Part shown: positions 1 through 15,885 of the stretch, one piece after another
Position numbering within the stretch: the first letter of the stretch is position 1
How the letters are laid out: every line of letters starts with the position of its first letter
Source of the DNA: a virus
Lineage: Duplodnaviria > Heunggongvirae > Uroviricota > Caudoviricetes
IMG/VR virus record: IMGVR_UViG_2534681991_000026
DNA length: 15,885 nt
Strand: one strand, 5' to 3'
Translations under genes and position numbers: made by a program
Notes under the pieces: generated by a model
What the model saw: the letters and a program-made list of their open reading frames with translations, nothing else
The model's database searches: none
Told to the model about the DNA's origin: nothing

Positions 1-165
1 ATGGCAAAGCCGATCATCACGCTCAATGGCCTAAAAATCGTCATTATGTTGGGAATGCTGGTCATTATTCTCTGCGGTATCCGTTTTGCCGCCGAGATCA
101 TCGTGCCGTTTATTCTCGCATTATTTATTGCTGTTATATATAACTTATTTCACTTAACGCATTGA
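1..165 (+). pseudogene. tqsA: 5' fragment of an AI-2 exporter TqsA/YdgG-like inner-membrane protein gene; frame ends after 54 codons
   Basis: ATG at position 1; translation [46 protein letters not shown] matches the N-terminus of enterobacterial TqsA as I recall it, then diverges (YNLFHLTH) and stops at 163-165. Hydrophobic TM-like segment. Identification is from memory, not a search. Confidence 0.5.
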
Positions 166-560
166 TTCAATTAAATAATTTACACAACAAAAAGTGCCAA
201 AAATCGCAAAATGACTACACCAGTGACTACACCGTTCGGTGCACTGTATGAAACAACGTGGAACAAATAGACACAAGAAATATAAAGGCGGGTCATCTTT
301 CCAGGGGGAAGCGCACCAATTCATGAGGGGCGTTAATGTCGATATGGGGATCCCCACCTACCGGAATTTTTGCCAGGTTAAATGTTAATCAGGCTGGTGG
401 GTTTTACATACCCTTGATCACGGTAATGATGATTCAGGTGCGTACCTTTTCCCCAGTGGGGTAAAAGCTCCAACCGTAACGATGTTCGTTGTAGTTGCCT
501 TGATGGTCTGCGTGGTCATTATGACCATTCAGCCAATGACCTTAATCAGAATTTTTCGCT

Positions 561-9289: not shown

Positions 9290-9530
9290 TGCACCTCCTC
9301 TACCTCTCTACCTAATCATCTTTCAGGTCAGTAATGGCGCGGCTTTCAGATGGGTAGAGGGCTTTCGTGGCCCTCTACCCATCATCTACCCGCCCCTCAC
9401 AAACAACCTTAATCATGGTGGAGGGGGTAGAGGGCTTTTATTTGCCTTCTACCAGCCCCTCTACCCACTTATCATATTGAATAATGTATATTTATTTTCT
9501 TTAGGTAGAAGAGGTAGAGGGCTTTTGTCT
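9290..9530. repeat. Iteron array flanking an AT-rich stretch; putative replication origin
   Basis: At least 8 copies of the core GGTAGAG(GGC)/(GCC)CTCTACC in both orientations (about 9298, 9306, 9354, 9373, 9386, 9426, 9459, 9505, 9514), including a perfect 11-bp inverted pair GGGTAGAGGGC(9352-9362)/GCCCTCTACCC(9370-9380); AT-rich 9467-9503. Directly 3' of the primase gene. Confidence 0.6.
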
Positions 9531-12264: not shown

Positions 12265-12469
12265 ATCTTAACTCCACTGAACTTACGTATTTACACGGGT
12301 TTCCTTTTACCTGTCGCACACGGTAGGAATCGTTTTTAATCACTTCCGCTATTTGCCCAAACTTTTTTACCGCTGTACGGCGGCTCTTGTAGCGGTAAGT
12401 GTTTATCTCCCTTCTGCTCATTACCGCTTCATTGTGATATCTGGTTATCACTATCAGCACTTCAAACAT
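12251..12469 (-). CDS. Hypothetical protein (about 72 aa)
   Basis: Start taken at ATG 12469 (MFEVLIVITRYHNEAVMSRREIN...), overlapping the upstream icd-like stop as ATGTTTGA; alternative starts at 12499 or 12421. Confidence 0.4.
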   Translation of the reverse strand: MFEVLIVITRYHNEAVMSRREINTYRYKSRRTAVKKFGQIAEVIKNDSYRVRQVKGNPCKYVSSVELRYVAE

Positions 12470-12632
12470 GACGCACCCCCTGACGAATACGGGCGACAAA
12501 AATCAGATGTGCGCGCGGCAACTGGGCGCGGGCTTCGCGTTCAGTGGCTGCGGTAACGGTGTAAATATCAATGCTGCTGTGGTGGCACTGCATAAAGCGC
12601 CAGACAAAGTAAGGGCGTGCGGATACAGCCAT
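12462..12632 (-). CDS. Icd-like small protein, paralog 2 (56 aa)
   Basis: MAVSARPYFVWRFMQ...TEREARAQLPRAHLIFVARIRQG; GGGAG SD about 8 nt upstream of ATG 12632; paralogous to 12919-13116. Resembles the small Icd-like proteins annotated in P4-like prophages (from memory). An in-frame upstream extension to 12926 exists with no stop. Confidence 0.45.
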   Translation of the reverse strand: MAVSARPYFVWRFMQCHHSSIDIYTVTAATEREARAQLPRAHLIFVARIRQGVRHV

Positions 12633-12918
12633 GTGAAAGGCTCCCAATTTAATGTTAAGGGGTCTCACCACTACGCTGCTAAACGGGGTGGCGAGACGTA
12701 ACAGGGTTAGCAGACTGGCAAATTGGGAAACCAGCGAGCGCAAAGGCTCCCCCGTTACGCCCCGCCATAATGCGGGTATGGGTAGGTTTACGGACACAAA
12801 AAAACCGCTTATCGGATATGGGCGGCTGTCCGCCAATTTATTCAGGCTGCTAAACCCGGTCGCCATGTGGGCGACGGGGGAAGCATACAGCCCCGTGATA
12901 ATTTTTTGCAAGCGGTTT

Positions 12919-13116
12919 TTACGCATGATGTGACCCCTGACGAATACGAGCGGCAAATACAGCAACACAACCTGACGGGCAACGGCTACGCGCTTCGCGT
13001 TCCGTCCAGGCGGTTACGTGGATGATTTGAGATTCTCCGGCACTCAGGGCCAGAAAACGCCACACAAAGGCCGTTTGTGTGTGTACAAGGTGTGGTATAT
13101 GATTTACGGCAACCAT
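12919..13116 (-). CDS. Icd-like small protein, paralog 1 (65 aa)
   Basis: MVAVNHIPHLVHTQTAFVWRFLALSAGESQIIHVTAWTEREARSRCPSGCVAVFAARIRQG; AGGAG SD 5-6 nt upstream of ATG 13116; first gene of the leftward early operon. Confidence 0.5.
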   Translation of the reverse strand: MVAVNHIPHLVHTQTAFVWRFLALSAGESQIIHVTAWTEREARSRCPSGCVAVFAARIRQGSHHA

Positions 13117-13206
13117 AACGGCTCCTAGTTTACGTTGTTGGTTAGAAGCCCCGTTACTGCTCCTACAGTGCGGGGCTTTGCTCTTTGTATTTCAACAATC
13201 CTTTTG

Positions 13207-13239
13207 GTGTGTTTCATGTTATGGACACATGAAACACAC
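13207..13239. promoter_or_regulatory. Operator-like perfect inverted repeat in the divergent control region
   Basis: GTGTGTTTCATG(13207-13218)-N9-CATGAAACACAC(13228-13239); a third half-site GAAACACAC at 13276-13284 abuts a -10-like TATACT (13270-13275) upstream of the plus-strand gene at 13306. Confidence 0.55.
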
Positions 13240-13305
13240 GTCAAGGCTTTTTGTATTTCTTTTTTTGTGTATACTGAAACACACCGATGATTAGGAGTTT
13301 CAGAA

Positions 13306-13611: not shown

Positions 13612-13940
13612 TCACTATCAGCGCCGTGGCGTGAGGTACTACGGCGCATTGCTTTACAGGCGCACACAATGACCAACGAAGAATCAACCGAAAAAACATC
13701 ACCTGCACGAAAAAGACGACGCAGAAAGAAAGAGCATGAATCAGAACGATTCGCGCCGTGTTCTTTTGCCCTTGAGAAGTACCTTAAAGAATACTCATCA
13801 AAGGAGAGAGCTTCGCAGTTATGGCAACGCACTGAACCAGACTGATTGCATTGCACACCAGCCTGATAGCGGCTATCATCCCCGTGCTTATGTTTGGGAT
13901 CACACACACAAACTGCGCAGCGGGTTATCTGTTCAGAAAG

Positions 13941-13968
13941 GCGGCTCCATTTCGGGGCCGCTTTTTTT
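13941..13968 (+). terminator. Strong rho-independent terminator of the rightward transcript
   Basis: GCGGCTCC(13941-13948)/GGGGCCGC(13954-13961) stem (one G-U pair), 5-nt loop, followed by T7 (13962-13968). Confidence 0.7.
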
Positions 13969-14114: not shown

Positions 14115-14303
14115 TTAATGAACTGCCTTGCAGCTATCCTTCCAGGCCAGAACCTCGGATAAAGACCAGCCAACGGAACGACCGCCAAGTTTACGACGTG
14201 ATGGGAATTGTCCGGCCTTTTCCATGCGGTAGCGACACGTACGGCTAAGGCCGGTTAGTTTTTCGCATTCTTTTTCACGTATAAACCGATCAGTGCTTAA
14301 CAC
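14115..14303 (-). CDS. alpA: AlpA-family phage regulatory protein
   Basis: 62 aa; ...EKLTGLSRTCRYRMEKAGQFPSRRKLGGRSVGWSLSEVLAWK... matches the AlpA HTH pattern (compare E. coli AlpA ...LGVKSVGWIEAEIDEWL); directly downstream of int as in P4-like elements and PICIs. Confidence 0.85.
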   Translation of the reverse strand: MLSTDRFIREKECEKLTGLSRTCRYRMEKAGQFPSRRKLGGRSVGWSLSEVLAWKDSCKAVH

Positions 14304-14453
14304 TATTGCCCCCTTTCGTTTCTTAAAGAGTCATCAGGTGTCTTATTGTGTCGTATTGTTCCCGCTAGAGTGATGAATGGCAAATGTTGGTGGCGCATGG
14401 TTTACAGAAAGAGGAATAATCAGGATAAAATCATTTAAATTCATGTTAATACA

Positions 14454-14487
14454 AAGGCATAAAATCTCGTTTTATGCCTTTTTTCTC
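14454..14487. terminator. Terminator-like hairpin between int and alpA (possibly bidirectional)
   Basis: AAGGCATAAAA(14454-14464)/TTTTATGCCTT(14470-14480), loop TCTCG; T-run TTTTCTC on plus and U-rich flank on minus. Confidence 0.5.
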
Positions 14488-14575
14488 ACGCTTTAAAGCG
14501 TGATTCGCTAATGTATAAAAAACCAGTAATATAATAAAAATCAGCAACTTATAAATCTGTATGCTTTTTCGCCTC

Positions 14576-14625
14576 TTGTTCGTGATTGTTCCACGTTGTT
14601 GCACATTGTTTCACGTTGTATCTGT
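14576..14625. repeat. 10-bp phased tandem repeat (nCACGTTGTT-like) downstream of int
   Basis: TTGTT recurs at 14576, 14586, 14596, 14606 (then TTGTA at 14616) with exact 10-bp spacing; units cgtgaTTGTT, ccacgTTGTT, gcacaTTGTT, tcacgTTGTa. Contains GTTCCACGTTGTT (14588-14600), the reverse complement of the motif at 252-264 and 7505-7517. Confidence 0.6.
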
Positions 14626-14667
14626 TCGCATATCCAGTATGCGCATACTGAAAAAACCCGAAAAAAA

Positions 14668-15885
14668 TTATTTTCTTCTGGCTACGGGTAGCGTGGTTAC
14701 GTTTTCATGTGCTCCCGCCAGTATCCCTAACCGCTCCGTCCACATATCCAGCGCATCACGTTTCGCATCCAGATAACGGGAATGGTTATAGACTCGTTGC
14801 ATCCCTGGCATCTGATGACCTGTAAGCTGCTCCACGACGTGAGGATCCGCGCCTAAATCGTTCAGCATCGTTGTAAAGGTGCGCCGGATGTCATGCAGTG
14901 ACCATTGAGGGTGTTTTAGCCTCCTGTGCGCTAATCTGCCGTACTGCGATACGCTGGCCTCCTGTTTCACTTCCCCCAGCAATAAGCCCGTGTGCCTGTT
15001 CTGCTCCACCAGCTTCATGACAAACGGCAGGATCGCTTCCGGTATGGGCCGGAATATTGCGACCTTCGTTTTGCTGTGCTCCTTCGGAACGGTCCATAGC
15101 ATTTCCGTAAAATCCCACTCCCCGATCTCCGATAACCTCAGTTCTACCGTTCTGGCACCGAAGACAATCAGGAGGCGGATTAACGCGACGTAGTAAGGGG
15201 AAAATATTTTTTTATCCAGTGCCTGCAATAACTCGCCAAGTTCTTTGGTGCTTAAGACACGCTCGCTTATATCCGGTTTTTTCCCAACGTCCGCAACGTT
15301 CAGATCGTCCAGAACGTTGCTGATTGCATAGCGCCGCCTACGGCAGAACTTAAGCGCCTGTTTGCACGCCTGTAGCACGAATCCGGCAGTAACAGGCGTT
15401 CGCTTTGCCACCTGGTCAAAACAAGCCAGCCAGTGCCGTAGCTCGCATTTATCCAGCGGCATAGCACCAATGTGCTGTATTACGTGATTATTAAGTCGCC
15501 TTTTCAGGGCGATATAATCCACGCGGTTTTCCTTTACGTAAGACTCAAGCCAGTAGGTAAGCGCATCGCCAACCGTTACGGGCTTTAACGCTTCCTGTAC
15601 GGTGTAATTCATCTCATGACGTGGATTTTTCCCCTCAGCCAGCCATGCGCGACACTGTGCGGCTTTTTCCCTGGCTGCTTTCAGGCTCAGATCAGGATAA
15701 CTTCCCAGCTTAATGCGTTCGGGTCGTGTCTCCCTTCCCGTTCCGGCCCTGTATGTGAAATACCATGTTAATTTCCCTGATGTTAAATATTTCACGCTCA
15801 GGTTTCCGCCATCACTATAAAACGTGTTTTTCTCAGCTGGCTTACCATGAAGTTTCCTTAGCAATGTATCGCTCAGTTTGTTCAT
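14668..15885 (-). CDS. int: Tyrosine recombinase / integrase, P4 family
   Basis: 405 aa; P4-type N-terminus (MNKLSDTLL...FYSDGGNLSV), catalytic-domain motifs (HDIRRTF, ...RVYNHSRY); start codon at the window edge, so the cognate att site is expected just beyond 15885. Confidence 0.9.
   Translation of the reverse strand: MNKLSDTLLRKLHGKPAEKNTFYSDGGNLSVKYLTSGKLTWYFTYRAGTGRETRPERIKLGSYPDLSLKAAREKAAQCRAWLAEGKNPRHEMNYTVQEALKPVTVGDALTYWLESYVKENRVDYIALKRRLNNHVIQHIGAMPLDKCELRHWLACFDQVAKRTPVTAGFVLQACKQALKFCRRRRYAISNVLDDLNVADVGKKPDISERVLSTKELGELLQALDKKIFSPYYVALIRLLIVFGARTVELRLSEIGEWDFTEMLWTVPKEHSKTKVAIFRPIPEAILPFVMKLVEQNRHTGLLLGEVKQEASVSQYGRLAHRRLKHPQWSLHDIRRTFTTMLNDLGADPHVVEQLTGHQMPGMQRVYNHSRYLDAKRDALDMWTERLGILAGAHENVTTLPVARRK

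Follow-up and report, generated by a model that had tools for sequence, protein, structure and literature searches.

What controls alpA in a phage satellite of E. coli, and through which of the structured elements that lie upstream of the gene? The stretch of DNA that we analysed (the window, 15.9 kb) is almost the whole of a mobile island inserted in tqsA, as seen from the RefSeq annotation of an identical copy and from Pfam matches. The region in question is the 364-nt spacer that separates the stop of int (14668) from the start of alpA (14303); both genes lie on the minus strand. Int (14668-15885, stop codon at 14668-14670; ORF list and RefSeq) is a P4-type tyrosine integrase with an N-terminal arm-DNA-binding domain (Pfam Arm-DNA-bind_3, 6.9e-19; Phage_integrase, 2.1e-15), and alpA (14115-14303) encodes a 62-aa protein from a GTG start with the ribosome binding site GGGGG at 14309-14313. 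In the annotation of the identical copy the genes, nearly all of them on the minus strand, run in the order int, alpA, a YlcI/YnfO-like gene and Icd-like genes; further genes encode a P4-family primase (D5_N, DUF5906), SSB and PerC, and a capsid module comprises HK97 capsid, protease, portal, connector, HNH, and small and large terminase subunit genes. The island is a capsid-forming PICI (cf-PICI), a phage satellite like EcCIEDL933, and its gene content matches the gene set of EcCIEDL933-type cf-PICIs (10.1101/2022.09.08.507074). The spacer sits between int and alpA, which share one orientation, in an island where pri-rep is followed by an iteron origin.

A first-pass annotation, made from the sequence of the window, had described four features of this spacer, a hairpin, a palindrome, an AT-rich block and a 10-bp array, all of which are present where it had placed them. 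It lacked a second 16-bp palindrome, the array copies at both ends of the island and two proximal ATTGT repeats (14345-14359). An identical int-alpA region is found in 14 complete genomes, and a related one in 1,158 of 5,426. For comparison we drew on E. coli genomes and IMG/VR contigs, which gave 54 unique spacer alleles whose AlpA has 85% identity or more; more distant AlpA homologues (70% identity or less) lie in other gene contexts and have no comparable array. A genome-wide search for AlpA loci returned 3 loci. An Rfam scan of the spacer gave nothing credible (BSnc120 reached 29 bits against a gathering score of 114). Open reading frames of 52 and 71 aa across the spacer were rejected as coding, because indels of 1, 2, 10 and 11 nt that distinguish the alleles break them.

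This spacer is the control region of alpA in a Gram-negative PICI. Together with alpA it aligns end to end with EcCICFT073 (75% identity, 601/601 nt), and with islands of the O157:H7 EDL933 type at 93.7% identity over all 601 nt. Reporter fusions of the EcCICFT073 spacer revealed a distinct alpA promoter that is activated by AlpA and induced by the helper phages lambda and phi80 in an SOS-independent manner, and placed Pint outside AlpA control (PMC6092414); the alpA promoter of EcCIMP1 behaves like that of EcCICFT073 (PMC11773190). The proposal of the first-pass annotation that int and alpA are separate transcription units is very probably correct, judging from the homology to the tested EcCICFT073 spacer, a sigma-70 match kept in 54 of 54 alleles and selection on a hairpin of the sense strand. 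Since the reporter work on the homologous spacer is published, separate transcription is, however, already known rather than new. The contrast that had been drawn with an assumed co-transcription of int and alpA thus marks no real gap, the PICI literature already holding the alpA promoter to be separate.

The best conserved sigma-70 candidate for the alpA promoter lies on the minus strand at 14383-14355 and consists of a -35 element TTGCCA (14383-14378), a 17-bp spacer and a -10 element AACAAT (14360-14355). TTGCCA-17-[A/C]ACAAT is kept in all 54 unique alleles, and a promoter matrix scan returned TTGCCA-17-NACAAT as the top-scoring minus-strand sigma-70 match in 11 of 11 aligned alleles, despite a 10-bp indel. 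Two ACAAT repeats 10 bp apart (14345-14359, minus strand; TRF finds period 10 at 14338-14359) lie over the candidate -10 element and the putative start region, and other alleles carry one extra proximal ACAAT unit as a 10-bp insertion. Because they overlap the -10 element, these proximal repeats would point to repression and not to activation. An alternative -10 candidate, TACATT (14515-14510), with a -35 element that is variable, falls within the block that a conservation profile over the alleles shows to be the most conserved of the spacer (14500-14526, minus strand; sense CTGGTTTTTTATACATTAGCGAATCAC). The AT-rich block (about 14500-14560) has 22-25% G+C. It holds an IHF-like site on the plus strand (14538-14550, AATCAGCAACTTA), between the array and the promoter region; the pattern [AT]ATCA[AG]N4TT[AG] is found in 53 of the 54 alleles and the full WATCAANNNNTTR consensus in 15, the site of the window having one mismatch. 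A further promoter candidate in this block, TTTATA-16-TATATT, was discarded, as the allele of the window is the only one to have it.

Between the best promoter candidate (14383-14355) and the array lies the hairpin (14453-14481, minus strand), with a 12-bp stem and a 5-nt loop, followed on the sense side by UUUGUAUU. Its arms (14453-14464 and 14470-14481, 12 nt each) are 100% complementary, a T6 run follows on the plus strand, and the structure appears in the centroid fold. We judged its pairing by folding each allele on both strands (MAFFT shifts the left arm by one base). The stem is unbroken in the sense RNA of about 50 of the 54 alleles, with a dG of -9.5 to -13.8 kcal/mol. Five kinds of substitution produce G.U pairs in the sense RNA and A.C mismatches in the antisense RNA, and one lineage carries a full compensatory change in the stem, from A-U to G-C. 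The hairpin is under selection at the RNA level, on the strand of int and alpA. Because the substitutions keep pairing only in the sense RNA, it may serve the int transcript at its 3′ end, either by terminating it or as a protective stem-loop, and the same one-sidedness argues against an antisense terminator, though the T6 run on the plus strand is clean. The hairpin is probably the int 3′ terminator, or a stem-loop, that insulates alpA; the U-tract of the sense strand is weak (UUUGUAUU only) and lost in about 4 of the 54 alleles, and a consensus scan made no terminator call.

Upstream of these elements stands the phased array (14576-14625, minus strand), five direct repeats with an exact 10-bp step that read ACAACGTGAA ACAATGTGCA ACAACGTGGA ACAATCACGA ACAAG in the sense direction, and that we propose to be AlpA sites. 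On the plus strand TTGT starts at 14576, 14586, 14596, 14606 and 14616 (period 10 by TRF), and the consensus 10-mer is RA-ACAA-Y-G-N-G. Such an array is not expected by chance: runs never exceeded 2 in 300 block shuffles of the window, and ACAA-N6-ACAA-N6-ACAA, with 0.00 expected in 200 shuffles, occurs four times in the window, as three overlapping matches in the spacer and one at 253-276. At least three ACAA cores at exact 10-bp spacing are present in 53 of the 54 alleles (five cores in 36, six in 10 and three in 7). Across the 54 alleles only these cores are conserved (90-100%); the linkers reach 40-80%. The repeats are direct, head to tail and not inverted, an orientation that by analogy corresponds to the binding mode of multimeric excisionase-type proteins. 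A scan of viral contigs with the phased TTGTT pattern was non-specific, returning mostly simple repeats in giant-virus bins, and neither the array nor its copies in the att arms appeared in any published description that we found.

The copies in the att arms are the main clue to what the array is for. The att core TGCTGTTAT lies inside tqsA (window 129-137; L002 18074-18082). Within the window, the phased pattern is limited to two places, the spacer and the attR arm. In the latter, on the plus strand, a unit at 211-276 consists of a doubled 12-mer, ATGACTACACCA GTGACTACACCG (211-234; putative Int arm sites), followed by the array ACAACGTGGAACAAATAGACACAA (253-276), about 120 bp inside the attR junction. 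The attL array lies just beyond the window (L002 17955-18000) and has 4-5 copies. Both arms have the same build: a doubled tandem 12-mer, (G/T)T(G/A)ACTACACC twice, and then the array after 12 bp; the 12-mer, also written as (A/G)TGACTACACC, stands twice in each arm (window 211-234; L002 17923-17946). The attL unit of 12-mers and array was present in 10 of the 10 E. coli loci examined, each with 4-5 array copies, and attR of EcCICFT073 has the unit of doubled 12-mer and phased array too. The array of the spacer shares 15 identical nt with that of attR (AACAACGTGGAACAA) and 14 with that of attL (ACAACGTGAAACAA), and has no doubled 12-mer beside it. Because matching arrays adjoin both island ends, the array in the spacer is most likely a head-to-tail AlpA binding site, and we infer that AlpA is the protein that binds it.

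The properties of AlpA agree with this assignment. It matches Pfam Phage_AlpA (1.2e-16) and, by sequence, PDB entry 8c3t (E 4e-6), and is 39% identical to Vis of phage P4. Its AF2 model (pLDDT 86.7) has the GIsul2 excisionase as its best fold match (TM 0.79), with RdfS matching too; AlpA is, on this model, an excisionase-type winged-helix protein. As to the idea of an antiterminator of the P. aeruginosa AlpA type, the PDB sequence search gave 8c3t and no further similarity. The sites of excisionases (RDFs) are generally direct repeats in tandem, spaced by one helical turn, and for Apl, Cox and Vis they occur at a promoter as well as at att (PMC7498355); for P4 Vis, a footprint at attP and promoter regulation are described (PMC2603039).

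Two comparisons separate the motifs of the att arms, and through this co-variation point to Int as the binder of the 12-mers and to AlpA as that of the array. The window and CFT073-type islands share the same arrays and have AlpA proteins of 92% identity, whereas the N-terminal arm domain of Int is 79-81% identical, against 93-94% outside that domain; the doubled 12-mer is GTGACTACACC in the one and TTAACTACACC in the other. The 12-mer of the window likewise differs from the TTAACTACACC of islands at the roxA, abgR and cspD sites, a difference that parallels the divergence confined to the first ~95 residues of the integrase. Conversely, CFT073-type and cspD-site islands (L015 and L016) have the same Int beta-strand and the same doubled 12-mer; the AlpA of the cspD-site islands is 60-63% identical to that of the window, and their array has CGAAC instead of ACAA as its core, at att as well as between int and alpA. 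The co-variation comes from few allele groups, and linkage could mimic it.

The same comparisons bear on the reverse assignment, namely that the array consists of arm-type sites for the integrase, comparable to lambda P′1-P′3 and put to a second use in alpA regulation downstream of int, with the 12-mers bound by AlpA or another factor. Arrays are indeed present in both att arms, and arm sites of the lambda type, too, can stand in tandem and in helical phase; moreover, Mageeney et al. left open which protein binds the doubled motif (PMC10111431). The 12-mer, however, shifts with the N-terminal domain of Int while the array does not, and where the AlpA allele differs the core of the array differs with it, the Int strand and the 12-mer staying constant. 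The spacer array, furthermore, has no 12-mers at its side, and tandem 12-mers, laid out as in the doubled motif of the window, are also the annotated attP arm repeats of P4. We thus regard integrase binding to the array as unlikely. Beside the doubled 12-mers of P4 we noticed by eye what appear to be three ~10-bp phased repeats, CGGACAACCT CGGAAGACGC AGGACGAAAA (L001 3966-4000), which would be a unit of the PICI type, 12-mers and then a phased array.

Could a different protein act on the spacer through one of its palindromes? The palindrome at 14486-14503 is perfect over 18 bp (TCACGCTTTAAAGCGTGA) and contains the 16-bp CACGCTTTAAAGCGTG (14487-14502); perfect palindromes of at least 16 bp arise in 0.9% of spacer shuffles. 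The first-pass annotation had read it as a site at which a dimeric protein gates alpA, which would make it an operator for a repressor or activator, and the perfect 18 bp, one compensated pair between the alleles of the window and O157, and the retention of 6-8 of 9 pairs around a TTTAAA centre in most alleles speak for this idea. The symmetry, however, is perfect in 1 of the 54 alleles, that of the window; the others have 4-8 of 9 symmetric pairs, and the EcCICFT073 group, in which the region has been studied experimentally, retains only 4 of 9. Conservation is limited to one half, ATSACKCTTTAA, which overlaps the box ATCACGCTTTAA (14504-14493, sense). This single conserved half recurs not as an inverted but as a direct repeat, in a proximal conserved box at 14323-14334 (minus strand; sense ATGACTCTTTAA). 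With the palindrome perfect in one allele of 54, a dimeric operator is unsupported, and we hold it to be very unlikely. The second palindrome, a perfect 16 bp (CAGTATGCGCATACTG, 14635-14650) just past the int stop, is specific to an allele group and is missing from the CFT073 group because of an 11-bp deletion; two U-runs precede it on the sense strand.

The two conserved boxes also bear on how the helper phage is sensed. Either they, as two copies of ATSACKCTTTAA, or the ACAA arrays at attL, attR and the alpA control region might be the docking sites of a helper-phage inducer, for example an Xis- or Cox-like protein, on the model of P2 Cox, which activates P4 PLL via 10-bp phased Cox boxes. 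Both boxes contain TTAAAG on the plus strand, and upstream of P4 vis lie three 10-bp phased TTAAAG repeats, which we take to be Cox boxes. The alpA promoter is, besides, induced by helpers independently of SOS (PMC6092414). The boxes of the spacer, however, match the Cox-box consensus inexactly and exist in two copies only, 170 bp apart; the known helpers belong to the lambdoid or P22-like phages and not to the P2-like ones; and array copies in both arms are explained more simply by the excisionase of the island itself. Helper docking is thus improbable. If true, it would reveal the cis target of the inducer of a Gram-negative PICI, and would couple helper sensing to excision and to alpA feedback.

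The array beside an AT-rich region also resembles the layout of an iteron origin of replication, and P4 ori1, whose TGTTCACC iterons look similar, lies directly upstream of vis. Yet an origin of the canonical PICI kind already exists elsewhere in the island. It lies 3′ of pri-rep, at about 9290-9530, where at least 10 iterons of a different sequence, GGGTAGAGGG/CCCTCTACC, in both orientations, flank an AT-rich stretch, and it matches the layout of Gram-negative PICI origins tested functionally (PMC6092414). The spacer array, in turn, is independent of the type of replicase, being unchanged across four types that include DUF927, a RepA helicase and a different primase family. We rejected the spacer as a replication origin on both counts, and consider such a role extremely improbable.

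Other parts of the island yielded observations of their own. At 13925-13960, between small convergent genes of the plus strand and alpA, a GC-rich hairpin is followed by T7 on the plus strand and preceded by an A-run; it looks like a two-way terminator shared by alpA and the opposing genes. At 13193-13285, between the divergent YlcI/YnfO-like gene (plus strand) and the Icd/C4 operon (minus strand), we noted a perfect inverted repeat, GGTGTGTTTCA...TGAAACACACC, with a third copy of TGAAACACAC(C) 45 bp away, an operator-like set with a motif unlike the ACAA array. In or beside the Icd-like genes, at 12684-12888 on the minus strand, lies a match to C4 antisense RNA (RF01695, 74 bits), together with an a1/b1 target match just below the gathering score (RF03163, 45.5 bits) and an overlapping isrK-like match; this region looks like an RNA immunity module of the P1/P4 type in a capsid-forming PICI. 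RefSeq flags the longer Icd-like gene (L002 14463-14927, about 12462-12926 of the window) as frameshifted. As the C4 RNA and its targets map to this region, features at the RNA level, rather than decay, may lie behind the pseudogene call.

Taken together, the features of the spacer suggest a three-part model, of insulation by the hairpin, a promoter of its own for alpA and an array bound by AlpA, which we favour with moderate confidence. int would be expressed from attL, and its transcript would end at, or be stabilized or capped by, the sense hairpin (14481-14453), which would block constitutive int transcription from entering alpA. A helper signal would lead to transcription of alpA from its own sigma-70 promoter (14383-14355, with the second -10 candidate at 14515-14510). 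AlpA would multimerize head to tail on the five ACAA repeats (14576-14625), reinforcing its own expression, and would also load both att arms, leading to excision; the DNA that links array and promoter may be bent at the IHF-like site. As like arrays lie beside the Int arm sites at attL and attR, one protein, AlpA, would drive both excision and its own positive feedback. The array is about 190-240 bp upstream of the best -35 element, with the hairpin between them, which is far for direct activation, and the nearer promoter candidate has a -35 element that is not conserved.

AlpA is the master switch of Gram-negative phage satellites, and its DNA targets have so far been undescribed. One repeat motif at both island ends and upstream of alpA offers a testable map of these targets and of a possible coupling between excision and self-activation. 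The search for the input of the helper phage, in turn, is narrowed to a few conserved boxes within about 360 bp. An excisionase doubling as a regulator is a design well known from phages 186, P2 and P4, and newly noticed here.

The closest relatives of this control region are the int-alpA regions of EcCICFT073 and EcCIEDL933, which are the alpA promoters of Gram-negative PICIs (Fillol-Salom 2018, Alqurainy 2023). They have the same position, array, hairpin, TTGCCA-17-NACAAT candidate and conserved boxes. The allele of the window differs from them in its perfect 18-bp palindrome and second 16-bp palindrome and in lacking the 10-bp proximal insertion, and the island integrates at tqsA, with a diverged arm domain of Int and diverged arm sites. 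Among phages, 186 Apl and P2 Cox, also small winged-helix proteins, have 5-7 direct repeats, one per helical turn, at att and at a promoter, with similar sequence and layout in the two places (PMC7498355). Their targets, however, are face-to-face switch promoters, which they repress, while AlpA reportedly activates the promoter of its own gene; the array of the window is also far upstream of the best promoter candidate, and AlpA belongs to Phage_AlpA and not to the Cox/Apl family. The X1-X1.5-X2 sites of lambda Xis resemble the array in that monomers bind head to tail, 10 bp apart, beside Int arm sites and bend the DNA (PMC7498355), but they occupy one arm only and have no copy at a promoter, while the window has the array in both arms and in the alpA control region. 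P4 Vis, 39% identical to AlpA, is likewise an excisionase that binds attP and a regulator of promoters (PMC2603039). P4 shares with the window the tandem 12-mer arm sites of attP and phased 10-bp repeats upstream of the excisionase gene; unlike alpA, vis does not adjoin int, its upstream repeats are of the TTAAAG type, and ori1 lies upstream of it, while the PICI origin is elsewhere.
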